64,000 bases of DNA from a bacterium (GTDB taxonomy: Bacteria; Desulfobacterota; Desulfovibrionia; Desulfovibrionales; Desulfovibrionaceae), in NCBI GenBank assembly GCA_037230945.1, contig JAXUUT010000104.1, positions 26,504-90,503 of the forward strand. Reading direction: 5' to 3'. Position numbers and translations under genes: made by a program. The notes under the pieces were generated by a model that made no database searches, was not told the origin of the DNA, and saw only the letters and a program-made list of their open reading frames with translations. Below are positions 4,637-60,852 of the stretch, piece by piece (position 1 is the stretch's first letter; the number at the start of each line of letters is the position of its first letter).

Positions 4637-6589
4637 ATGACAAGTACGCCCCTGCTCTCCAGCCTGCATCTTCCCGAAGATATTCCGGGCTTGTCCCTTT
4701 CCCTCAAGCAGGAACTGGCGCAGGAGCTGCGCGACACCATCATCCGCGTGGTCACGCAGAACGGCGGACATCTCGCGCCCTCCCTCGGCGTGGTGGAACT
4801 CACCATAGCCCTGCTCTCCTGCTTCGATCCCGCGCGCGATCCCATCGTCTGGGACGTGGGTCATCAAAGCTATCCCTGGAAGCTTCTCACGGGCAGAGCC
4901 GACCGCTTCGACACCCTGCGCCGCTACGGCGGTCTTTCCGGCTTTCCCAACCGTTCGGAAAGCCCCTACGACTATTTCGGCGTGGGGCACGCCTCCACCT
5001 CCATCTCCGCAGCCCTCGGCATGGCCGCAGCGCGTGACCTGCGCGGCGGCAAGGAACACGTGGTCGCCGTCATCGGCGACGGCGCGCTCTCCGGCGGCAT
5101 GGCTCTCGAGGCGCTGAATCAGGCCGGAGGCATGGGCAACAGGCTCATCGTCATTCTCAACGACAACAAGATGTCCATTTCCGAGAACACGGGAGCGCTC
5201 TCCCGCTTTCTCAGCCGCAACCTGTCCCACAGCACGGTCATGCACATCAAGCAGCACGTGGCCAAAGTGCTCTCGCGCCTGCCCAAGGGGGACTCCCTCG
5301 TGGACATCATCCGCAAGAGCGAAGTCAGCTTCAAGTCGTTCTTCACCCCGGGCATGCTCTTCGAGGCCTTCCAGTTCAACTACATAGGCCCCATCAACGG
5401 CCACGACATAGCCCAGCTCGAACGTCATCTCGAAGCCGCCAAGCAGCTCGACATGCCCGTGCTTCTGCACATACGCACGCGCAAGGGCAAGGGCTACGGC
5501 CCTGCCGAAAACGACCCCTCGCATTTTCACGGCATTTCCGCTTCCGTGGCCGACGAAATAGACGTGCCTCCCCAGCCCAAAGGCTGGAAGCCTTCCGGCC
5601 CGGGATTCAGTCAGGCCTTCGGCGAGGAACTCTGCCGCCTTGCCGAAAAGAATCCCAGAATTTTCGCCATCACGGCGGCCATGCCCGACGGTACCGGTCT
5701 CCAGACCTTCCATGAGCGCTTCCCGGAGCGCTTTGCCGACGTGGGCATCTGCGAAGAGCACGCCGTCACCTTTGCCGCAGGACTCGCCTCGCGCGGCTTT
5801 CATCCGGTAGTCGCCATCTATTCCACGTTCATGCAGCGCGCCTACGACCAGATCATACACGACGTCTGCCTGCAGAACCTGCCCGTCACCTTCTGCCTCG
5901 ACAGGGCCGGACTCGTGGGCGAGGACGGTCCCACGCACCACGGCGCGTTCGATCTGTCGTGGCTTCGCGTGGTTCCCAATCTCACGCTGGGCGCGCCCCG
6001 CGACGAGGCTTCGCTCCAAAAGGCGCTCGGCATCGCCCTTTCCATGAACAGGCCCGTGGCTCTGCGCTATCCGCGCGGAAGCGGCCGCAAGCTCGACGCC
6101 TCGCGCCTCAGATTTGCAGGCGCCCTTCAGACTCCCGGAGACTATCCCCCTCCCGGCGAAGGTCAGCTTCTTCTGCGCGGCAACGCGAAGGCGTGCATAC
6201 TGGCCGCCGGTCAGCGCGCCTTTCCCTGCGTGGAAGCCTCTCTCTGGACGGCGGAAAAAACCGGACTTCTCGCCTCCGTGTTCGACGCCTGCTGGGTAAA
6301 GCCTCTGCCGGAAAAACAGATACTCGAGCTGGCTCTTCAAAACGACGCGCTGCTGCTCGTGGAGGAAAACAGCCGTCTCGGCGGCTTCTCCTCCGCCGTT
6401 CTGGAACTTCTTGCCGATCACGACGCCCTCGGCCATCTCAAGATCCGCCGTCTCGGACTGCCCGACCGCTTCATTCCCCACGGTCCGGTGCGCCGACTGC
6501 GCGCCGACGTGGGACTCAACGTTTCCGGCATCGCGGCGGCGCTGAAAGAACTTCTGCAATACGCCGCGCCTGCCGATGAAAAAGCGTAA
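4637..6589 (+). CDS. dxs: 1-deoxy-D-xylulose-5-phosphate synthase
   Basis: 650 aa with GHQSYPWKLLTGR, the TPP-binding motif GDGALSGGMALEALN, and transketolase-like pyrimidine-binding and C-terminal domains. Confidence 0.95.
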   Translation: MTSTPLLSSLHLPEDIPGLSLSLKQELAQELRDTIIRVVTQNGGHLAPSLGVVELTIALLSCFDPARDPIVWDVGHQSYPWKLLTGRADRFDTLRRYGGLSGFPNRSESPYDYFGVGHASTSISAALGMAAARDLRGGKEHVVAVIGDGALSGGMALEALNQAGGMGNRLIVILNDNKMSISENTGALSRFLSRNLSHSTVMHIKQHVAKVLSRLPKGDSLVDIIRKSEVSFKSFFTPGMLFEAFQFNYIGPINGHDIAQLERHLEAAKQLDMPVLLHIRTRKGKGYGPAENDPSHFHGISASVADEIDVPPQPKGWKPSGPGFSQAFGEELCRLAEKNPRIFAITAAMPDGTGLQTFHERFPERFADVGICEEHAVTFAAGLASRGFHPVVAIYSTFMQRAYDQIIHDVCLQNLPVTFCLDRAGLVGEDGPTHHGAFDLSWLRVVPNLTLGAPRDEASLQKALGIALSMNRPVALRYPRGSGRKLDASRLRFAGALQTPGDYPPPGEGQLLLRGNAKACILAAGQRAFPCVEASLWTAEKTGLLASVFDACWVKPLPEKQILELALQNDALLLVEENSRLGGFSSAVLELLADHDALGHLKIRRLGLPDRFIPHGPVRRLRADVGLNVSGIAAALKELLQYAAPADEKA

Positions 6590-9868: not shown

Positions 9869-9955
9869 TGGTACCCGGTGCGGGGCTTGAACCCGCAAGT
9901 CCTTGCGGACGAGGGATTTTAAGTCCCTTGCGTATACCAGTTTCGCCACCCGGGC
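9869..9955 (-). tRNA. tRNA-Leu (anticodon TAA)
   Basis: The reverse complement reads GCCCGGGTGGCGAAACTGGTATACGCAAGGGACTTAAAATCCCTCGTCCGCAAGGACTTGCGGGTTCAAGCCCCGCACCGGGTACCA. It has a long variable arm, a TTCAAGC T-loop, an encoded CCA, and anticodon loop CTTAAAA. Confidence 0.9.
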
Positions 9956-36632: not shown

Positions 36633-37691
36633 CTACCGGTAATTCTCCAGCAGAAACATGGGCTTGATGGCCACGACTTCGTCGTATTCCGTCTGACTGA
36701 CCTTCACGCTGGAATTGAGAGAGCGGAGCACGGCCTTCATGTCTTCGTAGGCCCCGGAAACCGTCTCGGAACGTCCCTCCCTAATGGAACGGATCATGCG
36801 CGAAAGCGTGGCGGGATGCGCATAGCGGGCAGGCAGAGGGAAATCGGGATAGTCCTTTATGTAGTCCTCCATGTCGGCGCGGGCTCTGTCCAGCGCGGCC
36901 GCTATGGCCCGGCTGTTGTTGCGGGCCGTAGGCAGAACGTTGGCCCCGGCAAAAAAGAACAGCACAGCGAGACCTATGAGCGTGACGTATATGCCGTAGT
37001 CGCCTTCACCGGAAAACCACGTGTACGCACCGTAGGCGGATGCAACGAGGGCAAGACAGAAAATGGCGAGCGCCACCCACTTGTGCACGGGATTAGTCAG
37101 TTGATCGACGCGTCTGGCCTTGCTTGCCGCGGCAAGGCGCGTGGCAAGGTCGGGGCGCTTTTCCAGAAACGCCATGGCGTCGCGAAGCATGGCAAGACTT
37201 TTCTCAGCCTCGGCAGAAAGATGCTTCACATATCTCGCCTCTTCCGCGGCTCTGGCTTCGGCGAGCCTTTTTGCCGCAGCCTCGGACATGGTCTTGATGT
37301 GGGGGAAACGGTGCTGAATTTCGGCAAGCATCATGTCCACATGGCTTTCATGCTTGAACGTGCACTGCACCTTCTCTCCGTTGTCGTATTCCACCACGAG
37401 ATAGGGAATGGAACCGAAGATGCCCTTGCCGGTAAAACCGCCCTTGCTCATGGCCACGCGCTTGTAGGCCCGCTGAATGTTGGAGGCGGGCACATAAAAA
37501 CGGCGCTCCATGAACAGACTGTTCAGATACAGAGCCTTGTGCCCGACGCCGCAGGGACCGAACACGAGACAGGACTTCCGATCGTCCCTGAGCTCCTTGT
37601 CGCCCAGCCCTGCACTGCCGAGTCTGGCTGGTTTGAAATACAGCATCATGCGCTCTCCGGGGAAGTGAATTTCGCACTCGTGCGGCACCAT
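36633..37691 (-). CDS. Hypothetical membrane protein (N-terminal globular domain, coiled coil, 2 TM helices, C-terminal domain)
   Basis: The ORF has coding-like composition and TM segments WVALAIFCLALVASAYGAYTWF and IYVTLIGLAVLFFFAGANVL. I recognise no family. The true start may be Met-15 (37649), which has GGAGAG upstream. Confidence 0.6.
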   Translation of the reverse strand: MVPHECEIHFPGERMMLYFKPARLGSAGLGDKELRDDRKSCLVFGPCGVGHKALYLNSLFMERRFYVPASNIQRAYKRVAMSKGGFTGKGIFGSIPYLVVEYDNGEKVQCTFKHESHVDMMLAEIQHRFPHIKTMSEAAAKRLAEARAAEEARYVKHLSAEAEKSLAMLRDAMAFLEKRPDLATRLAAASKARRVDQLTNPVHKWVALAIFCLALVASAYGAYTWFSGEGDYGIYVTLIGLAVLFFFAGANVLPTARNNSRAIAAALDRARADMEDYIKDYPDFPLPARYAHPATLSRMIRSIREGRSETVSGAYEDMKAVLRSLNSSVKVSQTEYDEVVAIKPMFLLENYR

Positions 37692-39620: not shown

Positions 39621-40112
39621 TCATGCGTTCCGGAAGGCAAGACGCATCTGATGCCACGCGACATTGCCGTGCGTGGAGGAGGAAAGTCCCTCGTCCTCAA
39701 AGCCGAGGGAAGCATAATAGGGAACAAGTCTCTCCTTGCAGGTGAGCACCACGCCCGCCTTCCCTCTTTTCCGGGCCTCTTCCGTCAGTCGCCTGACGAG
39801 CATGGCGGCATAGCCTCTCCTCCGGAACTCGGGAAGCGTATTGAGTCCGAAAACCATCTGCCAGCGTCCGTCCTTTCTGTGCAGCGAAGCGTCGGCGTAC
39901 ATCTCGTCGCGCAGATCGCGTTCATCCGTGGCCATGCCGTCGATGAAGGATACCAGCCGCCCACCCTCAAACAGCAGCCAGAAACAGTCGGCATAGGCCG
40001 CAAGCCTTTCGCGAAATTCCTCTTCCGTGGCCGCCTCGGCGGCAGGAAAGCAGCGCCGTTCCACCTCGGCTATGGCCGCAAGATCGGCCATGGTCGCATT
40101 TCTTATGAACAT
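39621..40112 (-). CDS. GNAT family N-acetyltransferase
   Basis: MFIRNATMADLAAIAEVERRCFP..., with the acetyl-CoA binding motif RRRGYAAMLVRRL. I used the ATG at 40112, which has GGGAGGA upstream. Confidence 0.85.
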   Translation of the reverse strand: MFIRNATMADLAAIAEVERRCFPAAEAATEEEFRERLAAYADCFWLLFEGGRLVSFIDGMATDERDLRDEMYADASLHRKDGRWQMVFGLNTLPEFRRRGYAAMLVRRLTEEARKRGKAGVVLTCKERLVPYYASLGFEDEGLSSSTHGNVAWHQMRLAFRNA

Positions 40113-40252
40113 GCATCCTCCCGGCTCCTGCAATGAACAATGAGGAGCCGCCTGTTTTTAATCGTCAGACGCTGCGGCGCCGCACAAGGCATCCCGCAAA
40201 CGCCGATGGCAGATTCCGGTTCAGAAAAACGGACGCCCTTCCCCGCCCGGAC

Positions 40253-41314
40253 CTATCTCGCTTCCTCATGCAGGGCGCAGGGAGCCTCAAACCGCTTGGC
40301 GCAGGACACGCAGGCGTCCGGAGGATCGGCCGTCTGCACGGATGCGCGAAAGCTTGCGTATTCCGAATCGGCCCATATGTCTGCAGGGCTTTTCTCCCGC
40401 ACGCAGCCGAAGACCGTGCGGTTCGGCTGCGGCTCCTTGAGCGGCACGTTCAGATACACGCAGGGCGAAACAAGCCCGTCGGCGTCCACGTACAGCGTTC
40501 GATGCGCCCTCTCACGGCAGCACGGTGCGGGCTCCGGCGCGGGAAGCGACGCATAGAAATCGCGGCCCCCGGCTCGAACGCGCGCGCCCACCTCCTCAAG
40601 CACCGCGCGCGCAGCCTCTATCTTGTCCCGTTCATGGGGCGCAAAGGCCTCCTTCGCCATGTCTGGCGAAGGAATGTAGTCCATGGTGCTGATGACCGCC
40701 GCATGCACGCCCCAGTCCTCCATGAGTTCAGGCAGCCCGCGCACGGCCTCCACGTTTGAGGCAAGCATGAGATAGGCCAGATGAATTTCCAGATGCACGG
40801 CATTTTTTTCCCGGCGGATCTTCTGCAGAGTTTTCACGGCGTTCTCCACGCGGGAAAAGGGAATGCCGGCACGGGCCCCGTTGCTCTGCTCGTCCGTGCC
40901 CACCAGAGAAAAGGCCACAATGTCCATGCCGCTTGCCACAATGTCTTCCGCCAGCTTCTCATTCATGACCATGCCGCAGGTCGTCGTGGAGACGGCGCAT
41001 CCGGCTCTGCGGGCAAGCGACACCAAGTCCATGAAATGCGGATTGAGAAAAGGTTCTCCCCAGCCCTGCAGATGCACGCGTCCCGCCCGCGTCATGACGG
41101 GCCAGAGCGCGGCAAAGGTCTCGGCCTCCATGTGTCTGCTCTTCCACACGTCCGCACGCGTGGTGTGCGGGCAGTACACGCACTTTCCCATGCAGCATGA
41201 GGTTACTTCCACCTGCAGACATTCCAGCTCACGCGGCCGAAGAAAGTCGCGCAGATCCTGCAGAATTCCGGGAGCCCGAAACCTTGAGAAAAGCCGTTTG
41301 ACGTCGGTTGCCAT
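40253..41314 (-). CDS. Radical SAM enzyme with a SPASM/twitch-like C-terminal Cys cluster
   Basis: CxxxCxxC motif (CMGKCVYCPH), then GWGEPFLNP. The C-terminal auxiliary-cluster region is PCCRERAHRTLYVDADGLVSPC...FGC...CVSCAKRFEAPC, with a GxxxxC element. The ATG has an AGGAG SD and lies 13 nt after the stop of the upstream gene. Confidence 0.85.
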   Translation of the reverse strand: MATDVKRLFSRFRAPGILQDLRDFLRPRELECLQVEVTSCCMGKCVYCPHTTRADVWKSRHMEAETFAALWPVMTRAGRVHLQGWGEPFLNPHFMDLVSLARRAGCAVSTTTCGMVMNEKLAEDIVASGMDIVAFSLVGTDEQSNGARAGIPFSRVENAVKTLQKIRREKNAVHLEIHLAYLMLASNVEAVRGLPELMEDWGVHAAVISTMDYIPSPDMAKEAFAPHERDKIEAARAVLEEVGARVRAGGRDFYASLPAPEPAPCCRERAHRTLYVDADGLVSPCVYLNVPLKEPQPNRTVFGCVREKSPADIWADSEYASFRASVQTADPPDACVSCAKRFEAPCALHEEAR

Positions 41315-41327
41315 GCATTTTCTCCTG

Positions 41328-44003
41328 CTAGAGCGTCCAGCTCGTTTCCAGATGCGGCATGAGCTCGAAGGCTCCCCACTTCTTCTTGAAGAAGGTGATG
41401 CCGCCGTCTATGCCGAGCCCGAGGTTCAGCACGCTCTGCCCGCGGCGCACGGCCTCGTCTGCAAGCGCCTGCAAAAGCGCGTCGCTCACGCCGGGAGGAC
41501 AGTCGTCCTGCCGGAAGGCAAACATGTAGAAGGCCGTGCAAAGCGCGCTGTAGTCGCCCACGGCCATGGCGAGCAGCCTGCCCGAGGCATTGCGCGCGGC
41601 AAAGAGCACGGCATCCGGCGATGCCTGCACATATGCCCCGACTCTGCCGAAGATGTGCCTGGTTCCGGGGGCGAGCGTACGTACCTTGAGGTAATGATCC
41701 ACCAGCGCGTCGTGTTCCGGTCCCCAGTTCTCCACGGCAACGACGGCTTCCCTCTGCGCACGGCGGAGCATGTTGCGCAGCTTCTGCCCCGGCGTGTGAG
41801 GAAGATTCACGCACCACCACGCGTCGCGCTCCACCACGGCCCTGTCCGGCGCGGCGGCGGGCACGACAGGCGCGAGCACCGTGATTCTGCGAAGGTTCGG
41901 CATGGCAAGCGCGCAGGCAACGGCCTTTCCCAGCCGTTCGTCATACGCCGCGGAGCCGACGGCGCAGAAAGTCTGCTCATCCTGCGCGGGAAAGGCCACC
42001 AGCGTGCAGCTGTCGGCCGTGGTCCAGGCGGCAAAGCCCTCGCACGAACGCAGCGTGCGTCCCGACACCGCTCTCACGTAGGAAGGAATCTGTTCCGGCA
42101 CCACGGCCCTCGCACCGAGATCGGCGAGTCTTCTGCCGGAAGACGGACCGCGGGACGCCACAACCCGTTCCGCGCGTTCTCCGGCGCCTTCCCTGCGCAG
42201 CGCGGACGAGCGCACGTTTTCCGCCGGAGCCTTTTCCCACGCGGGCGCGTCGGGGTTGCCCGGCAGCACCACGGAATCGTCCCTCCGGATCCAGGCGGAG
42301 AATCGGTGCTTCCAGGTCGGCAGCACGCGGGTCACGGTAAAGCCGTCCTCGGACAGCATCTGCCGCAGATTGATCATGTGGGCCGAGCCCACGAACACCG
42401 CCGTTCCTCCCCGCTCGATGTACGGACGCATTCTCTCGCGGAAGCGCTGATCGCGCACGCTGATGATGGTGCCCGTGCGGGTGGGAAATTCTGCGCTCGT
42501 CCCCATCATGCCCATGAGGTCTCCCGCAAGATAGCGGGAACGGTTGCTCTTCATGAGCTTCGGCCAGAAGGAACACTCCTTCATGAATCGTACGATGCGC
42601 TCCATGGGCGCGGACTCAAGCGAAGCTATCTGCTCGGCAAGACTCTCCATGCCCATGACCGACTTGCCCATGTCGAGCGCGACGTCCCACACTTCGAGAT
42701 CCACGGAGTTCGTCCAGCCGTTGCGCTCAAGATACGACGTCCAGAGCGAGAAGAAGGCGTACCACTGACGGCTTTGTGCAAGCACGGCGCGCACGTCGAT
42801 GCGCCGCTCCTGCTGCACGCCGACAAGCCGTGCAAGAAATCCTTCCGGCCCGTAGACCATGCGTTCAAGCCGGACGACGTCCTCTTCGGAAAGAAACTGC
42901 GCCACGCGCGGCGCATCGGGCTCGGGAGAACGGCCGATGCGCGCCACCTCGTCCATGCTGTCGGAATCTATGGGCCCTTCCAGAAGCACGGTGTCCACGT
43001 TTTCAAACAGTCGCCGCAGGGAATGTTCAAAGGAATAGCAGAAGAAGTGTGCGGAGCCGCCTATCCACGACGTGCGTCCGTTCTTGTCGAGGCGCCAGAG
43101 CATGGCGCAGGGACGCTGCTGGGGAAGGGAATCAAAGAACTTCCAGCGCGACATTTCATAGATGCTCGACGAGGAGCCTATGCTTATGGCGAGATACGCC
43201 GCCATGTCGAAAAAGCCGCCGCTGCCCGTGAGACTTGCGGAAGGCTGCCACACGGCAAGCTCATAGGGCGCATCCTTCACGCCGCCCCACTTTTTCTTGA
43301 AGCGGGTTATGCCCTCGTTCACGCCGAGTCCGAGCAGCACGGTGCTCTTTCCCTCGGCCCGGGCCCGCTCCAGCATTTCGGCAAAAAGAAGGTCGGGCGC
43401 GTGCGGGACGTAATGGGTCTTGGAGTGTGCGCCGAGCACATAGCTCACGTGCTCCGGCAGGGAATAGTCCAGCAGAAGACAGGCAGCAAGCTGTCCCTCG
43501 GCGTCCCAGGCGTTGAGCAGCCTGAGATCGGCCTTTCCGCGGAGGGCCGAAGCCGTGCCGGAATAGAGCTGGCGTATGCGCGGAGGAAGCGGAATGCGGG
43601 AGAGAAATTCCGCCCACAGCCGCCTGTGCTCCGGCGAAAACTCCCGCGTTTCATCCACCGTAAGGCGTTCCCCCGCATGCCGCACAGGCCCGCGCAGCTT
43701 TGCGGGTACGGCAGCAGAGGCGGAAAGCGTGTAGTATACGTCGCGATCCTGCACGCAGTCCTTCAGTCTCTCGGGCATCTGCGGCGCTATGGCGAAGCAG
43801 TCGGAAGGCTTGACCCGGCGCAGGGCTTCGTCAAGCGCCTTCTCGAACCTCTGTACGGAAAACTCTCCTTCCAGCGGATAGCCTATGGCCATGAGCCAGT
43901 CGCCGTCCGCGACGAATATGTGACTGTCCAGCTCGAAGGAATGACCTGCCGACAAGGCCTCAAGAAGGGGCCGTGAATGTTCGGGAACGGTGACTGCGGA
44001 CAT
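41328..44003 (-). CDS. 891-aa fusion protein: FemAB/CelD-like GNAT-fold module + TraB/GumN (TIKI-superfamily) domain + second GNAT-fold module
   Basis: The central region has TraB/GumN-type motifs: MLWRLDKNGRTSWIGGSAH, VLLEG, VDLEVWDVALDMGKSVMGMES, YLAGDL and AVFVGSAHM..EDGFTV. Both termini end in LGLG[VI]..GIT.FKKKWG, typical of FemAB/BioF2-like acyltransferase folds. The ATG at 44003 has an AAGGAG SD. The ORF-track start at 44135 is also possible. Confidence 0.8.
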   Translation of the reverse strand: MSAVTVPEHSRPLLEALSAGHSFELDSHIFVADGDWLMAIGYPLEGEFSVQRFEKALDEALRRVKPSDCFAIAPQMPERLKDCVQDRDVYYTLSASAAVPAKLRGPVRHAGERLTVDETREFSPEHRRLWAEFLSRIPLPPRIRQLYSGTASALRGKADLRLLNAWDAEGQLAACLLLDYSLPEHVSYVLGAHSKTHYVPHAPDLLFAEMLERARAEGKSTVLLGLGVNEGITRFKKKWGGVKDAPYELAVWQPSASLTGSGGFFDMAAYLAISIGSSSSIYEMSRWKFFDSLPQQRPCAMLWRLDKNGRTSWIGGSAHFFCYSFEHSLRRLFENVDTVLLEGPIDSDSMDEVARIGRSPEPDAPRVAQFLSEEDVVRLERMVYGPEGFLARLVGVQQERRIDVRAVLAQSRQWYAFFSLWTSYLERNGWTNSVDLEVWDVALDMGKSVMGMESLAEQIASLESAPMERIVRFMKECSFWPKLMKSNRSRYLAGDLMGMMGTSAEFPTRTGTIISVRDQRFRERMRPYIERGGTAVFVGSAHMINLRQMLSEDGFTVTRVLPTWKHRFSAWIRRDDSVVLPGNPDAPAWEKAPAENVRSSALRREGAGERAERVVASRGPSSGRRLADLGARAVVPEQIPSYVRAVSGRTLRSCEGFAAWTTADSCTLVAFPAQDEQTFCAVGSAAYDERLGKAVACALAMPNLRRITVLAPVVPAAAPDRAVVERDAWWCVNLPHTPGQKLRNMLRRAQREAVVAVENWGPEHDALVDHYLKVRTLAPGTRHIFGRVGAYVQASPDAVLFAARNASGRLLAMAVGDYSALCTAFYMFAFRQDDCPPGVSDALLQALADEAVRRGQSVLNLGLGIDGGITFFKKKWGAFELMPHLETSWTL

Positions 44004-44218
44004 GAGAGACTCCTTGGCACGCTTGTGAGGAATATGCCATATCCATGCCGGACGGTAAAGAAGACCCTGCTGCCGCCCGTCTGCAGCGCCGTACCGCAAA
44101 CGACGCAACGCCGGACAGGCCGCCCCAGGCGTCATGCCCGGGATTGCCGAGGGAAACTTTCTGTTATAGGGTATCCGGATATCCCTTTGTTTCCCTTAAA
44201 AATTTTTTTGGTGTCTTC

Positions 44219-45031: not shown

Positions 45032-45185
45032 TGCGGCACGGAACGCCGCGCTGCCCTTCTGTTCAAGACTTTTTTCTCATGGTTCTGACATATTGCCTTT
45101 TTTGAAAGGCCGTCTACAGTTACCCGCAGAAGCACGGCGTGCCTCAGGCCCGCCGCTCCCCACTCCGCAAGAAAACGAGGTTCCC

Positions 45186-46694
45186 ATGTTTGAAACAGTC
45201 GTACTTGGCAGACGTTGCAGCGACAGGGAATACAAGGAACAGGCCCCGGATCTGCGCATGAAGTTTTTTGAGGCGCAACGGCAGTGCATGGACCGCAAGA
45301 TTCCTCTGCTCATCATCATAGCCGGCATAGACGGCGCAGGCCGCGGCGCGGTCATCAACCTGCTGTCGGAGTGGATGGACAGCAAGCACGTGCACAACCA
45401 TGTGTTCTGGATGGAAACCGACGAGGAGCGTGAACGCCCCGAAGACTGGCGCTACTGGCGCAGGCTCCCGGAGGCCGGAAGCGTGGGCGTATTTTTCGGC
45501 GGATGGTACGGCCTTGCCATGCGCAAGTTCAGCTCGGGCGACATGAGCGAGATGGCCTTCAGCTCCCACATGCATCACTGCCGCGGACTTGAGGAAAGTC
45601 TCGCCGCTTCGGGCATGGCCATAGCCAAGATATGGCTGCACCTCGACCGGAAAGAGCATGAAAAACGGCTCAAGAAGCGTCTGGCACACAAGGAAGTGCT
45701 TCATTTCACGCCCTACGACAAAAAGGCCTCCGAAAATTACGACGGCCTTGCCAGCGCCGCGGCACGAGCCATCACGCTGACCGACCGTGCCTTCGCCCCC
45801 TGGACCGTCGTTGACGCGGCGGACGCAAACTACCGCAATCTTGCCGTGGCAAAGGCCGTCATCGCCACGGTGGAGCGCGCCGTTGCCGGACAGGAGGCCA
45901 GAAAGGCCCGTCTTGCAGAAAAAGCCGCCGCGCCGCAAAACGTCATTTCCACGCTGGATGCCATAGACCTGAGCGCAAAGGCAGATCCTGATACCTACAA
46001 AAAGGATCTGGCCGATCTGCAGACCGAGCTGCATGAACTCACCTACCACGCCTGGCGCAAGGGAATTTCGAGCACGCTCGTGTTCGAGGGCTGGGACGCC
46101 TCGGGCAAGGGCGGCAGCATACGACGCCTCATGGACGGCATAGACGCCCGCATAAGCCGGGCCATTCCCATAGGCGTTCCGTCCGACGAAGAGCTGGCTC
46201 ATCACTACCTGTGGCGCTTCTGGCGACATGTGCCCCGTGCCGGATTCATCACGGTGTACGACCGCTCCTGGTACGGCCGCGTGCTGGTGGAACGCGTGGA
46301 AGGGCTTACGCCTCAGGAGGACTGGAGCCGGGCCTACTCGGAAATCAATCTTTTTGAGGAACAGCTCATAAATCAGGGCAACGTGCTTCTGAAATTCTGG
46401 CTGCACATTTCCCCGGACGAGCAGCTGCGCCGCTTCAAGGAACGGGAGTCGACGCCGTGGAAGCAGTACAAGATCACGCCCGACGACTGGCGCAACAGAG
46501 AAAAATGGCCGGAATACGTGCTTGCCGCCGACGAAATGTTCCTTCGGACCAGCACGGACTACGCGCCATGGCACATCATTCCCGCGGAAGACAAGAAATA
46601 CGCCAGACTTTCGGTACTGCGCACCTATCGTGACGCGCTGAAGAAGGCCCTGAAGCAGGCCGACGGGAAAAAGGACGGCCGCGACAAGAAATAG
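45186..46694 (+). CDS. Two-domain polyphosphate kinase 2 (polyphosphate:AMP phosphotransferase type)
   Basis: Two PPK2 repeats. The N-terminal repeat has a degenerate P-loop (GIDGAGRG); the C-terminal repeat has GWDASGKGGSIRRL and DRSWYGRVLVERVEG. I used ATG 45186. Confidence 0.88.
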   Translation: MFETVVLGRRCSDREYKEQAPDLRMKFFEAQRQCMDRKIPLLIIIAGIDGAGRGAVINLLSEWMDSKHVHNHVFWMETDEERERPEDWRYWRRLPEAGSVGVFFGGWYGLAMRKFSSGDMSEMAFSSHMHHCRGLEESLAASGMAIAKIWLHLDRKEHEKRLKKRLAHKEVLHFTPYDKKASENYDGLASAAARAITLTDRAFAPWTVVDAADANYRNLAVAKAVIATVERAVAGQEARKARLAEKAAAPQNVISTLDAIDLSAKADPDTYKKDLADLQTELHELTYHAWRKGISSTLVFEGWDASGKGGSIRRLMDGIDARISRAIPIGVPSDEELAHHYLWRFWRHVPRAGFITVYDRSWYGRVLVERVEGLTPQEDWSRAYSEINLFEEQLINQGNVLLKFWLHISPDEQLRRFKERESTPWKQYKITPDDWRNREKWPEYVLAADEMFLRTSTDYAPWHIIPAEDKKYARLSVLRTYRDALKKALKQADGKKDGRDKK

Positions 46695-46854
46695 CGGATG
46701 CCATGCAGCCGCCTGCACCGGTCTCTACCGGCGACGCTGCGGTCCGCCGGACATCAATGGTCTGTTTTTTCAAGCGATTTTCTTGCTTCCCCCTCTATTA
46801 ATGAGTACAGTGCACAGAACGCACATCTTTCCGAGACAAGCATAAGGAGGCCTC

Positions 46855-48042
46855 ATGCCCGAACTCTCTCATGAAAAAAAACTTCTCCTGGATGAAATCC
46901 AAAATCTGTCCGACCAGATGAGGGAAACAGCCTCCGCCATCTTTGCCGAACCGGAGCTGGGATATCAGGAATTCAAGTCTTCCGCCCGTCTTGCCGACCT
47001 TCTCGAGTCAAACGGCTTCAAGGTGGAACGCAACCTGCTTGACATGCCCACGGCCTTCCACGCCAGTTTCGGTTCCGGAGAAGGACCGCAGGTAGCGTTT
47101 CTTGCCGAGTTCGACGCGCTTCCCGGCCTCGGGCACGCCTGCGGGCACAATCTTTTCGGCACGGCAGCCTGCGGCGCCGCCGTGGCGCTTGCCCGTCATC
47201 TTCCCGCCGGAACCGTGCACGTGTTCGGCACACCCGCCGAGGAAGGCAACGTCAGAGACGCTGGCGGCAAGGTTCCCATGGCCGACGCCGGCCTCTTCGA
47301 CAACATGGACGCCGTCATTGCCGCCCATGCCGAAGGACGCACCATTCTCAAGCAGCAGCTCATTTCCCGCGCCAATCTTGAAATGGACTTCAAGGGCAAG
47401 GCCGCCCATGCCGCCGGCGCTCCGGAAAAGGGCATCAACGCCATGGACGCCGCGGCCCTTGCCGTCATGGGCATCAACAGCCTGCGCCAGCACATGACCC
47501 GCGACGTGCGCATTCACGGCCTGCTCACCGACACCGGCACCTCCATCAACACCATTCCCGAGTTCGCCCGTCTGCGCTACGGCGTGCGCGCCCGCAAGCC
47601 GGAAACGCTCAACAACGCCATCGAACGCGTGGTCAACTGCGCGCGCTGCTGCGCCATGGCCCTCGGCTGCCAGTTCTCCTATCGCCATTCCGCACATCCC
47701 TACTACACCATGCGCCACAATATGCCTCTGCTGCACGCCTTTGCCGCCAACCTTGACCTGCTCGGAGAGGACTACATCGAAGAAGTGCAGAGCAGCTATT
47801 CCACCGACATGGGCAACGTCAGCTTCAAGGCTCCTTCCATCCATCCCTACATTTCCATCGGCGGAGCGCACCTTGTGGGCCACACGCCCGAATTCGCCGA
47901 GGCCTGCAACGGCGAAGGCGGCTTCAAGGGGATGATCCTCGCCGCAAAATCCATGTGCCTGACCGGATTCGACGTGCTCACCAATGAAGAGCTCCGCAAG
48001 GCTGCGCGCAAGGCGTTTGAAACGCTTGACGACTTCGACTGA
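46855..48042 (+). CDS. M20 family amidohydrolase (AbgB / aminoacylase-like)
   Basis: GHACGHNLFG, FGTPAEEG, and a dimerisation-lid region. It is followed by an AbgT-family transporter. Confidence 0.8.
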   Translation: MPELSHEKKLLLDEIQNLSDQMRETASAIFAEPELGYQEFKSSARLADLLESNGFKVERNLLDMPTAFHASFGSGEGPQVAFLAEFDALPGLGHACGHNLFGTAACGAAVALARHLPAGTVHVFGTPAEEGNVRDAGGKVPMADAGLFDNMDAVIAAHAEGRTILKQQLISRANLEMDFKGKAAHAAGAPEKGINAMDAAALAVMGINSLRQHMTRDVRIHGLLTDTGTSINTIPEFARLRYGVRARKPETLNNAIERVVNCARCCAMALGCQFSYRHSAHPYYTMRHNMPLLHAFAANLDLLGEDYIEEVQSSYSTDMGNVSFKAPSIHPYISIGGAHLVGHTPEFAEACNGEGGFKGMILAAKSMCLTGFDVLTNEELRKAARKAFETLDDFD

Positions 48043-48150
48043 TATCCCTATCCCTAATACCCCGGCGCATCACGTCGCGGACCTTCCGCGCCGTGATGCT
48101 TTGTATAAGGACCTTTTTACATCTGCACCACGCCCAAGGAGCTCCAGGCC

Positions 48151-49665
48151 ATGGCGAAAGAACAAATCGAAAACCTTTCCGGCATACTCGGCTTCATCGA
48201 ACGAGCCGGCAACAGGCTGCCGCATCCCGTCACCATCTTTCTGATCCTTACGCTGATCGTCATGGTCATCTCCTACCTTCTGCAGGGAATCACCATGGTC
48301 GACCCCAAGGGAAAAACGCTGGTCGTGCAGAGCCTCGTCTCGGTGGACGGCCTCACCTGGTTCCTTAAAAACTGCGTGGACAACTTCGTGCGCTTCAAGC
48401 CCCTCGGCCTCGTGCTCGTCATGATGCTCGGCCTCGGCGTGGCCGAAGAGGTGGGTCTTCTCTCCGCCGTGCTTCGCGCCACCATTCTCAGCGCGCCCCG
48501 CAGCATGGTCACGGCCATCATCGCCTTCTGCGGCGTCATGGGCAACATGGCTTCCAGCGCGGCCTTCGTGGTGGTTCCTCCCCTCGGCGCCATGATATTC
48601 AAGGGACTCGGACGCAATCCTCTGGCCGGCATGGCCACGGGCTTCGCCGGCTGCGCCGCCGGTCTCAACGCCAACCTTCTGGTGGTGGGCACCGACGTGG
48701 GCCTTGCCGCCATCACGCAGCAGGCCGCCCAGATCATCGATCCTTCCATCACCGTGCATCCTGCCGTCAACTGGTACTTCATGTCGGCCTCGACCTTCCT
48801 CGTCACGGCCATCATCGTCTTCCTCACGGAAAAGTTCGTCGAGCCCCGGCTTGAAGGCGTGGTCATGCACGAAGGCGCCATGGGCAGCGAAGACATGACC
48901 GTCACGCCCGAAGAGCGCCGCGGACTGCGCGCCGCCCTCATCGGCGGACTCATCTACATCTGCCTCATTCTGCTCACCGTGGTGCCCGAACACGGCATTC
49001 TGCGCAACCCCAAGACCTTCAGCATCGTGCCTTCCCCCTTCCTTGACTCTCTCGTGCCCATCCTGCTGGTGTTCTTCCTTGCCGTGTCCATTCCCTACGG
49101 CGTGAGCACCAAGGTCATACGCAACGACAAGGACGTGGTCCGCTTCATGGGGCAGGCCATGCGGGAATTCTCCTCCTTCATCGTGCTGTGCTTTGCCGCC
49201 GGTCAGTTCGTTTCCAGCTTCGCCTACACGCATCTTGACATGTACCTGTCCATACAGGGCGCGGCATTCCTCAACGACACGGGCTTTTCCGGCATTCCGC
49301 TCGTGGTGAGCTTCCTCATCCTCACCGCCTGCATCAACTTCTTCATCGGCAGCGCCATGGCCAAGTGGGCGCTTCTGGCCCCCATCTTCGTGCCCATGCT
49401 CATGCAGATGCAGCTTTCGCCCTACTTCGTTCAGGCCGCCTACCGCGTGGCCGACTCCACCACCAACGCCATCTCGCCGCTCGAGCCCTTCATGGCCTTC
49501 ATCATCGGCGTGGCTCAGAAGTATGCAAAAAACGCGGGCCTCGGCACCATCATTTCCCTCATGCTGCCCTATGCGCTCGGCATCCTCTTCTTCTGGGGGC
49601 TGTTCCTCATCCTCTGGATGGAAATGGATCTGCCCCTCGGTCCCGGCGCACCCGTGTTCCTGTAA
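48151..49665 (+). CDS. AbgT family (p-aminobenzoyl-glutamate type) transporter
   Basis: 504 aa and polytopic. The N-terminus LGFIERAGNRLPHPVTIFLIL is typical of AbgT/MtrF. Confidence 0.85.
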   Translation: MAKEQIENLSGILGFIERAGNRLPHPVTIFLILTLIVMVISYLLQGITMVDPKGKTLVVQSLVSVDGLTWFLKNCVDNFVRFKPLGLVLVMMLGLGVAEEVGLLSAVLRATILSAPRSMVTAIIAFCGVMGNMASSAAFVVVPPLGAMIFKGLGRNPLAGMATGFAGCAAGLNANLLVVGTDVGLAAITQQAAQIIDPSITVHPAVNWYFMSASTFLVTAIIVFLTEKFVEPRLEGVVMHEGAMGSEDMTVTPEERRGLRAALIGGLIYICLILLTVVPEHGILRNPKTFSIVPSPFLDSLVPILLVFFLAVSIPYGVSTKVIRNDKDVVRFMGQAMREFSSFIVLCFAAGQFVSSFAYTHLDMYLSIQGAAFLNDTGFSGIPLVVSFLILTACINFFIGSAMAKWALLAPIFVPMLMQMQLSPYFVQAAYRVADSTTNAISPLEPFMAFIIGVAQKYAKNAGLGTIISLMLPYALGILFFWGLFLILWMEMDLPLGPGAPVFL

Positions 49666-60758: not shown

Positions 60759-60852
60759 TGGCGGAAGCGTATAGGAGTCGAACCTACCTCAGACCTCTCA
60801 GCCTGACACTGGTTTTGAAGACCAGGCGCAACACCGGTTACGAGACGCCTCC
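60759..60852 (-). tRNA. selC: tRNA-Sec (selenocysteine, anticodon TCA)
   Basis: The reverse complement reads GGAGGCGTCTCGTAACCGGTGTTGCGCCTGGTCTTCAAAACCAGTGTCAGGCTGAGAGGTCTGAGGTAGGTTCGACTCCTATACGCTTCCGCCA. It has an 8-bp acceptor stem, anticodon loop CTTCAAA, a long variable arm, and the AGGTTCGACTCCT T-arm also found in E. coli selC. Confidence 0.92.

Follow-up and report, generated by a model that had tools for sequence, protein, structure and literature searches.

What chemistry is carried out by a protein that holds a putative hydrolase between two copies of a transferase-like fold? The question is raised by an 891-amino-acid (aa) protein encoded in a member of the Desulfovibrionaceae (GenBank assembly GCA_037230945.1, contig JAXUUT010000104.1, positions 26,504 to 90,503 of the forward strand). 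This whole stretch of 64,000 nucleotides (nt) is called the window, and coordinates are those of the window unless a homologous locus is named. An earlier note, made from the sequence alone, had described the protein as a cytoplasmic fusion with a TraB/GumN core between two GNAT-fold modules. That description is borne out. What the note missed is that the gene unites, in the Mailhella lineage, the first two members of a self-contained cassette of three genes found in Desulfobacterota, that the third of these codes for a radical S-adenosylmethionine (SAM) enzyme with a SPASM region, and that a two-domain form of the protein is commoner. These statements on domain architecture and cassette are made with high confidence.

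Architecture of the fusion protein

Read from its first ATG, the open reading frame (ORF) spans 41328..44135 on the (-) strand and codes for 935 aa. The 891-aa start at 44003 is preferred because a Shine-Dalgarno-like sequence is found 6 nt upstream, and because the N-terminal residues of homologues of 885-891 aa coincide with this start. The features of the gene are as follows.

41328..44003, (-) strand: whole ORF, 891 aa plus stop codon, in the order N-module, TraB/TIKI domain, C-module
44010..44015, (-) strand: Shine-Dalgarno-like AAGGAG, 6 nt before the ATG at 44003, read directly from the sequence
43236..44003, (-) strand: N-module, aa 1-256, predicted tandem-GNAT, FemX/MprF-like transferase fold; PF13480 at aa 108-229; basic helix at aa 101-113
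43284..43334, (-) strand: N-module motif LGLGVNEGITRFKKKWG, aa 224-240; L224, G225, L226, G227, F235, K236, K238 and W239 are family-invariant and also occur in the C-module
43137..43235, (-) strand: linker 1, aa 257-289, predicted disordered, with a predicted local distance difference test score (pLDDT) <50
42327..43103, (-) strand: TraB/PrgY/GumN (TIKI-superfamily) hydrolase domain, aa 301-559, from the Pfam match and a domain model
43047..43058, (-) strand: first GxxH, G316-S-A-H319; H319 is invariant in 76 sequences and the partner Glu is E342 in VLLEG
42378..42389, (-) strand: second GxxH, G539-S-A-H542; H542 is invariant and is preceded by invariant basic R517, R520 and R524
42108..42317, (-) strand: linker 2, aa 563-632, with predicted disorder around aa 590-610
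41331..42107, (-) strand: C-module, aa 633-891, paralogue of the N-module with a predicted tandem-GNAT, DUF2156/MprF-C-like fold; basic helix GQKLRNMLRRAQRE at aa 739-752
41373..41423, (-) strand: C-module motif LGLGIDGGITFFKKKWG, aa 861-877, counterpart of the N-module motif

Linker 2 is the counterpart of the C-terminal tail that the stand-alone GNAT-TraB protein has in other lineages, together with the N-terminal leader of their stand-alone C-module protein. An AlphaFold2 model of the full-length protein (pLDDT 84.8; predicted template modelling score, pTM, 0.62) displays three folded domains and disordered linkers at aa 257-289 and 590-610. The highest Kyte-Doolittle mean over 19 residues is 1.41, and the N-terminus, MSAVTVPEHSRPLLE, is polar and not a signal peptide. 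Thus the protein has neither a transmembrane (TM) segment nor a signal peptide, in agreement with the earlier note, whose quoted motifs (WIGGSAH at aa 313-319, VGSAHM at aa 538-543, and those at aa 224-240 and 861-877) also lie at the residues it gave. To judge from their sequences, all parts of the cassette are soluble and cytoplasmic.

The three-gene cassette

The architecture is repeated in hundreds of homologues, far above chance. Three adjacent genes, coding for GNAT-TraB, GNAT and radical SAM/SPASM proteins, are found in Desulfovibrio, Bilophila and Desulfobacterales. In Desulfovibrio sp. SGI.169 and in a Desulfobacterales metagenome-assembled genome, for example, a GNAT-TraB gene of 563-587 aa is followed by a C-module gene of 284-295 aa, whose product is 41-49% identical to the C-module of the window, and then by a radical SAM/SPASM gene of 351-352 aa. 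The genes of split cassettes abut or overlap. When the four parts were used in a tblastn search of 85 loci, the order N-module, TraB, C-module, radical SAM was found in 69, and most of the others are cut by contig ends. At one locus (L068) the contig extends past the C-module and no radical SAM gene follows; two more (L082 and L083) seem alike.

Tracing of reading frames, with 79 loci scored, gave 53 split and 26 fused. The fused loci are those of the Mailhella clade plus at least one unrelated lineage, that of L004 and L005, which is only 41-45% identical to the window protein and represents an independent fusion. A different covalent joining is displayed by L031 (7777-9699) and L073, where the C-module is fused to the radical SAM/SPASM enzyme in a protein of 640 aa with PF09924, PF04055 and PF13186. 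The same fusion is found in representatives of 615 and 633 aa (P0244 and P0246) from a global radical SAM search. The earlier note had singled out the order GNAT-TraB-GNAT; it is the two-domain GNAT-TraB protein that is the widespread architecture, and the conserved neighbour is the radical SAM/SPASM gene (40253-41314).

Across two classes of Desulfobacterota the four modules thus stay together without a change of order, and they are covalently joined in three different ways. This argues strongly that they share one substrate or pathway. The fused N-module-TraB-C-module, the C-module-radical SAM fusion and the fully split state together make a Rosetta-stone case that the modules work together. 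All four look catalytically intact from their sequences, and the cassettes of Desulfovibrionales and Desulfobacterales are 50-60% identical.

The distribution was assayed by a pattern scan of one genome per GTDB species, which found a relative in 288 genomes. The best 80 of these 288 were examined and all are Desulfobacterota: Mailhella, Bilophila wadsworthia ATCC 49260, Desulfovibrio piger ATCC 29098, other Desulfovibrio, Desulfatibacillum, Desulfobacterales and 'delta proteobacteria'. Desulfobulbus alkaliphilus is among the C-module matches, and the nearest homologues carry the name Mailhella, a genus of the Desulfovibrionaceae. Public annotations of homologues read 'GNAT family N-acetyltransferase', 'TraB/GumN family protein', 'DUF2156 domain-containing protein' and 'translation initiation factor IF-2'. 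The last of these is the label of several stand-alone C-modules (P0145, P0147 and P0161) in NCBI records, and is probably a misannotation that has been propagated. No NCBIfam family covers the fusion protein, and searches of NCBIfam, PADLOC, PDB and the full-text literature gave no curated family, solved structure or report on the cassette, nor any characterised pathway with this domain order; the earlier note, too, had recognised none.

When every ORF of 90 aa or more at 86 loci was clustered, no fourth conserved gene emerged, only the cassette genes and their alternative-frame shadows. Small ORFs (15-120 aa) lying no farther than 600 nt from the cassette were clustered likewise at about 70 loci, and none was common to the clades; the clusters consisted of alternative-frame shadows and clade-specific ORFs.

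Two transferase modules

The PF13480 match of the N-module scores 34.5 bits against a Pfam cutoff of 22. The N- and C-modules are 30% identical over 203 aa (BLASTP, E 4e-20), and when ten modules of each type are aligned jointly they match from end to end, aa 1-256 with aa 633-891. Residues P7, D88, P100, D204, L224-G-L-G227, F235, K236, K238, W239 and W252 are invariant across the 20 modules, and the motif D...LGLG...FKxKW is invariant in both types. Among 32 stand-alone C-module homologues, PF09924 (the MprF C-domain) is matched in 27 at E<=0.01, with a best value of 2.4e-8, and PF13480 in 17. The two modules are paralogous tandem-GNAT folds of the FemX / MprF-C (DUF2156) type. The idea that they are the two lobes of a single FemX-like fold is rejected, since each alone aligns to full-length tandem-GNAT enzymes and each exists as a stand-alone protein of about 285 aa.

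In Foldseek searches of PDB the best 21 matches are all aminoacyl-tRNA transferases (probability 1.00, E 2e-8 to 7e-7), of the MprF-C or FemX kind; the earlier note had named FemAB and MprF-C. The set is made up of lysyl- and alanyl-phosphatidylglycerol synthases, represented by their soluble domains, together with whole MprF (4v36, 4v35, 5vrv, 6lv0, 9j8s, 7f47), and Weissella FemX (4ii9, 7z6a, 1ne9) at TM-scores of ~0.53. Next in the ranking are the tRNA-dependent peptide synthases Sba18 and Sbb17 (9wqy, 9wqx); at 16-18% identity, their target TM-scores of 0.55-0.56 are the highest among the aminoacyl-tRNA transferases. The tandem GNATs that use coenzyme A (CoA), namely VipF, Eis, NMT and the clavulanate tandem GNAT, rank after these, at E 1e-6 to 1e-5.

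The CoA pyrophosphate-binding loop [QR]xxGx[GA] is found in neither module, and the sole match across the 891 aa, at aa 603, falls in a non-conserved disordered linker. A basic helix opens the second GNAT lobe of both modules (predicted at aa 101-113 and 740-752). In the C-module helix, GQKLRNMLRRAxRE, K741 and R743 are conserved in 36/36 sequences, R748 in 35/36, R751 in 33/36 and R747 in 29/36; in the N-module helix, about 90% of sequences carry a basic residue at positions 102 and 109. The PPGxxD...NLGLG loop shows a weak alignment with the APKGIMD...NMGMA segment of lysyl-phosphatidylglycerol synthase (L-PGS), and the invariant F-K of G-I-x-x-F-K-x-K-W-G is presumably a likeness of the Phe-Lys pair of FemX. 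A positively charged helix for the tRNA acceptor stem is a feature common to aminoacyl-tRNA transferases (PMC6103681). Absence of the CoA loop, together with conservation of the basic helix, therefore favors a tRNA-dependent rather than a CoA-dependent type of GNAT.

The TIKI-type hydrolase domain

The central domain matches PF01963 (TraB_PrgY_gumN) over the full length of the model (aa 301-559, positions 1-263 of 263; 102 bits against a cutoff of 26.8, E 6.5e-29), and the match is also full-length in the split and independently fused relatives that were scanned (L031 and L004). Enzymes of the TIKI superfamily use a His-Glu pair to activate water and cleave peptide or ester bonds, and active members have a His/Glu set with a conserved basic residue (PMC6254334). 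The invariance of H319, E342, H542, R517, R520 and R524 across the 76 family sequences matches this set (PMC6254334). E453 and E457 are likewise invariant and are candidates for the second Glu of the '2His/2Glu' set of RRSP. On the sequence evidence, the hydrolase domain thus keeps the His/Glu/Arg set of its family.

Modelled alone, the domain has a pLDDT of 89 and a pTM of 0.86. A Foldseek search of PDB with this model gave no convincing neighbour: the best match is a Tetrahymena complex IV subunit (E 8.5e-3, TM-score 0.40), and the erythromycin esterase EreC, like BcR135, reaches only E 1.3-2.4. Membership of the TraB family therefore rests on the Pfam profile and the motifs. It should be noted that one fused form of 833 aa, from an uncultured 'delta proteobacterium' (L034, 6001-8502), matches only model positions 1-196 of 263 of PF01963; this is either a true truncated variant or an assembly or frameshift artefact.

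The radical SAM/SPASM partner

The third cassette component follows directly on the fusion gene.

40253..41314, (-) strand: 353-aa radical SAM/SPASM enzyme, with its start 13 nt beyond the stop codon of the fusion gene
40230..40249, (-) strand: terminator-like hairpin with T-run, directly after the radical SAM stop codon; from a consensus scan only

Because of the 13-nt gap and the hairpin after the radical SAM gene, the local operon is read as consisting of these two genes, and the hairpin probably marks its end, although terminator-like consensus sites are no more numerous in the region than in shuffled sequences.

The protein displays CX3CX2C at C41/C45/C48, seven Cys in the C-terminal SPASM region, and matches to PF04055 (52.7 bits) and PF13186 (38.4 bits), both above cutoff. 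Its best curated relatives are PqqE and the 'metalloenzyme maturases' TIGR04317 (125.5 bits, cutoff 380) and TIGR04311 (114 bits, cutoff 400). The two TIGR families share its length and its CX3CX2C and SPASM layout and align over the full length, at scores far below their cutoffs. Identity with the TIGR04317 tungsten-cofactor oxidoreductase maturase is ruled out by the equivalog cutoff. PADLOC gave no defence-system match beyond a generic viperin-like radical SAM similarity.

Sister groups were sought among 1.84 billion representatives, followed by NCBIfam scans and inspection of context. The orthologues, taken at 47% identity or more, are a small set, and all carry F-(R/K)-x-P-G-x-x-E-x-L-(R/K) ahead of the Fe-S motif. 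The nearest sister groups (~40% identity) tell nothing about function, since they are uncharacterised and lie in unrelated contexts without transferase or TraB genes.

A MinD-like tail on stand-alone C-modules

At split loci the C-module protein ends in a basic, aromatic, amphipathic tail of 12-25 residues (KKGFLARLFG, NKGWLARLLGR, KKSWFSRFID), up to 8/10 identical to the membrane-targeting sequence KGFLKRLFGG of Escherichia coli MinD. Examples, each at the C-terminal end of a stand-alone C-module gene, are as follows.

L039, near 5477-5519: C-module tail
L001, 10612-10651: C-module tail
L047, 4365-4407: C-module tail

A hydrophobic-moment shuffle test was uninformative because the peptides are too short, and the likeness to MinD therefore rests on the sequence pattern; the tail is a hint of membrane association. 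The radical SAM protein of Mailhella begins with MATDVKRLFSRFRAPG (window 41260-41314, (-) strand), in which LFSRF resembles the tail motif WFSRF of other lineages, and a tail-coding segment may have shifted across the boundary between the C-module and radical SAM genes.

Proposed function and alternative explanations

The chemistry proposed here, for which our confidence is evenly balanced, is that of a tRNA-dependent double aminoacyl-transferase and hydrolase working with a radical SAM enzyme on one, probably membrane-proximal, substrate. Each transferase module would take an aminoacyl group from aminoacyl-tRNA, and not an acyl group from acyl-CoA, and pass it to a hydroxyl or amine of a shared acceptor. 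The attached TIKI-type domain would cleave, by hydrolysis, an ester or amide linkage in this acceptor or in the product, either trimming it before transfer or taking the aminoacyl group off again as the hydrolases partnered with MprF and ErdS do, and the radical SAM/SPASM enzyme would modify the same molecule by radical chemistry. The best guess for the acceptor is a membrane-proximal molecule, for example a lipid head group or a lipid-linked or membrane-bound amine, which is placed first because of the MinD-like tail. A protein or peptide encoded elsewhere, a soluble small molecule and acyl-CoA chemistry are placed after it, in that order, and the ranking as a whole is a guess. A transferase paired with a hydrolase has precedents: aminoacyl-lipid hydrolases usually lie beside MprF genes, and in fungi ErdS (DUF2156) goes with ErdH (PMC7334510). 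In the light of these the pairing seems natural.

Several points weigh against this proposal. The chemistry is derived from fold, sequence and analogy, and tRNA dependence from a fold ranking with a narrow margin, CoA-dependent VipF standing at E about 9e-7. The earlier note had expected Pfam matches to PF01963 in the centre and to PF13480, PF02388 or PF09924 at the ends, and matches of these kinds came out; the PF09924 match of the C-module (aa 739-863) is, however, sub-cutoff, with E 0.003 and 17-18 bits against 27.5. PDB sequence searches with the whole protein, a C-module profile and a combined N- and C-module profile gave nothing significant, only an L-PGS match at E~1 and matches, due to chance, to a basic helix in ribosomal protein uL30, so that the transferase assignment rests on profiles, fold and motifs. 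Support for the modelled TraB fold from solved structures is weak. The sequences reveal no flippase or TM domain, unlike MprF, and in every fused form, that of the window among them, the chain ends directly behind ETSW(T/S)(L/V) and lacks the tail. Unless regulated, a chain that carries both a writer and an eraser would be futile. A lipid acceptor would also leave the role of the SPASM enzyme unexplained; SPASM enzymes mostly act on peptides or proteins.

This last point leads to a different role, the maturation of a protein or peptide encoded elsewhere, in which a TIKI-type endopeptidase would expose an N-terminus or remove a leader, the transferase modules would add one or two residues, and the SPASM enzyme would install a cross-link or oxidation. 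The logic is that of FemX, L/F-transferase and Ate1, which move a residue from aminoacyl-tRNA to an exposed amine. Peptidases of this superfamily are TIKI, TraB/PrgY and RRSP (PMC6254334), some RiPP-like loci contain both Tiki/TraB peptidases and SPASM maturases (RiPP, ribosomally synthesised and post-translationally modified peptide; PMC8939145), and the best curated relatives of the radical SAM/SPASM enzyme are, as noted above, putative metalloenzyme maturases and PqqE. The 50-60% identity between the two orders, combined with variable flanks, also fits a housekeeping maturation role. Maturation is nevertheless judged unlikely: no clade has a conserved small ORF within 600 nt of the cassette, no conserved neighbouring gene is a candidate substrate, and the tail of the stand-alone C-modules indicates the membrane instead. 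The radical SAM enzyme is moreover minimal, and since it has 353 aa with its Fe-S motif at residue 41 it has no room for an N-terminal peptide-recognition domain. A small-molecule pathway, in which the modules would condense amino acids from aminoacyl-tRNA onto a soluble amine, the radical SAM enzyme would tailor the product, and the hydrolase would release or activate it or protect the cell, is suggested by the rank of Sba18 and Sbb17 among the best structural matches and by the solubility of all parts. It is rather improbable, as no conserved transporter, regulator, resistance or further tailoring gene lies beside the cassette, which seems vertically conserved within families, unlike patchy biosynthetic clusters, and whose sequence conservation is unusually high for secondary metabolism.

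That the modules are ordinary acyl-CoA-dependent N-acyltransferases acylating the substrate would agree with the public annotation 'GNAT family N-acetyltransferase', with the name of PF13480 as an acetyltransferase domain, and with the significant Foldseek matches to VipF, Eis, NMT and the clavulanate tandem GNAT. Given the missing [QR]xxGx[GA] loop in both modules, the 21 leading structural matches, the PF09924 matches in 27/32 homologues and the conserved basic helix, it is seriously doubted here. As to the long ORF itself, a frameshift or assembly merger of two genes, or a decaying pseudogene, might be suspected because two separate genes are found in most relatives, and the fused locus L034 with its truncated TraB match could be such a case. 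For the window gene this is scarcely credible: the same in-frame fusion occurs in about 25 independent assemblies at 56-96% identity, and catalytic residues are intact in all three domains.

Comparison with known systems

The MprF C-domain (DUF2156, PF09924) has the same tandem-GNAT fold and supplies the best Foldseek matches (4v36, 4v35, 5vrv, 9j8s). PF09924 matches here too, though the score of the window protein itself is sub-cutoff, and the basic helix, the lack of a CoA P-loop and a PxGxxD...N(L/M)G(L/M) segment are shared. In MprF with its aminoacyl-phosphatidylglycerol hydrolase, as in ErdS/ErdH, a dedicated hydrolase is genetically coupled to the transferase, as it is here (PMC7334510). 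The window protein differs from MprF in lacking the N-terminal flippase/TM domain, in having two transferase modules instead of one, and in the obligate radical SAM/SPASM partner of its cassette. Its hydrolase is of the TIKI/TraB type and not an alpha/beta-hydrolase, and is covalently fused and cytoplasmic rather than secreted. With no N-terminal flippase domain (maximum hydropathy 1.41), the protein is not MprF proper.

FemX, FemA and FemB share with it the tandem GNAT, the above-cutoff PF13480 match (in the N-module) and the use of paralogous enzymes acting in series; the C-terminal G-x-x-x-F-K-x-K-(F/W)-G is also taken by us to resemble the F-K motif of Fem proteins. The window protein has neither the coiled-coil insertion nor the cell-wall gene context of FemABX. 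Its hosts are Gram-negative and without interpeptide bridges, and its modules are fused to a hydrolase and coupled to a radical SAM enzyme. Context and host thus rule out a FemABX enzyme of cell-wall synthesis.

Sba18, Sbb17 and Orf11 are, like the modules described here, soluble tandem-GNAT proteins (~285 aa). They sit in large biosynthetic clusters, whereas the present cassette has only three enzymes and is conserved across a clade of order level. VlmA, PacB and DhpH/K are further tRNA-dependent natural-product enzymes of the Sba18/Orf11 kind. The TIKI/TraB/PrgY/GumN/erythromycin-esterase superfamily (TIKI1/2, RRSP, EreB/C, ChaN) has in common with it the PF01963 match over the full length, the pair of GxxH motifs and the invariant His, Glu and Arg; the window domain differs in being cytoplasmic without signal peptide or anchor, in its permanent fusion to a transferase, and in having no close solved structure. 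The cassette is not recognisable as a RiPP cluster, as no precursor gene adjoins it within 600 nt.

Other genes in the window

The genes around the cassette are listed below.

39621-40133, (-) strand: RimI-like GNAT acetyltransferase (PF00583, E 3.8e-11), just downstream of the cassette
36633-37691, (-) strand: 352-aa ORF with a hydrophobic centre and no Pfam or NCBIfam match; found beside CstA in Mailhella loci at 70-100% identity
45093-46694, (+) strand: two-domain PPK2 polyphosphate kinase, first of a three-gene run (45093-49665)
46855-48042, (+) strand: M20 peptidase/amidohydrolase
48151-49665, (+) strand: AbgT-family transporter
60759-60852, (-) strand: tRNA-Sec, anticodon TCA (Rfam RF01852, 78 bits)
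9869-9955, (-) strand: tRNA-Leu(TAA)

The RimI-like GNAT, CstA and TauE neighbours are Mailhella-specific. The RimI-like gene is probably a separate transcription unit because of the terminator-like hairpin that precedes it. The M20 peptidase and AbgT transporter pair resembles uptake and hydrolysis of the aminobenzoyl-glutamate type.

Significance

The interpretation offered in the earlier note is supported. None of the domains is new in kind; what is new is their combination and the obligate radical SAM partner. With confidence a little short of even, the cassette is seen as a hitherto unrecognised tRNA-dependent modification system of sulfidogenic Desulfobacterota, among them the human-gut genera Bilophila, Desulfovibrio and Mailhella, in which two transferases, a cytoplasmic TIKI-type hydrolase and a radical SAM enzyme would make or edit a new aminoacylated lipid, metabolite or protein terminus.

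TraB/GumN/TIKI domains are widespread, and to our knowledge almost no bacterial member has a known substrate; a TraB domain permanently tied to a transferase narrows the search for one. Non-translational aminoacyl-tRNA transferases serve in cell-wall bridges, in lipid aminoacylation and antimicrobial-peptide resistance, in N-degron tagging and in antibiotic assembly. If the proposal is true, a new branch of these enzymes, coupled to radical SAM chemistry, would extend this list of roles, and TIKI/TraB hydrolases, aminoacyl-tRNA transferases and radical SAM chemistry would be linked for the first time. Among the hosts are Bilophila wadsworthia and Desulfovibrio piger, medically relevant sulfidogens of the gut that can be grown in culture, and in them the prediction is directly testable.

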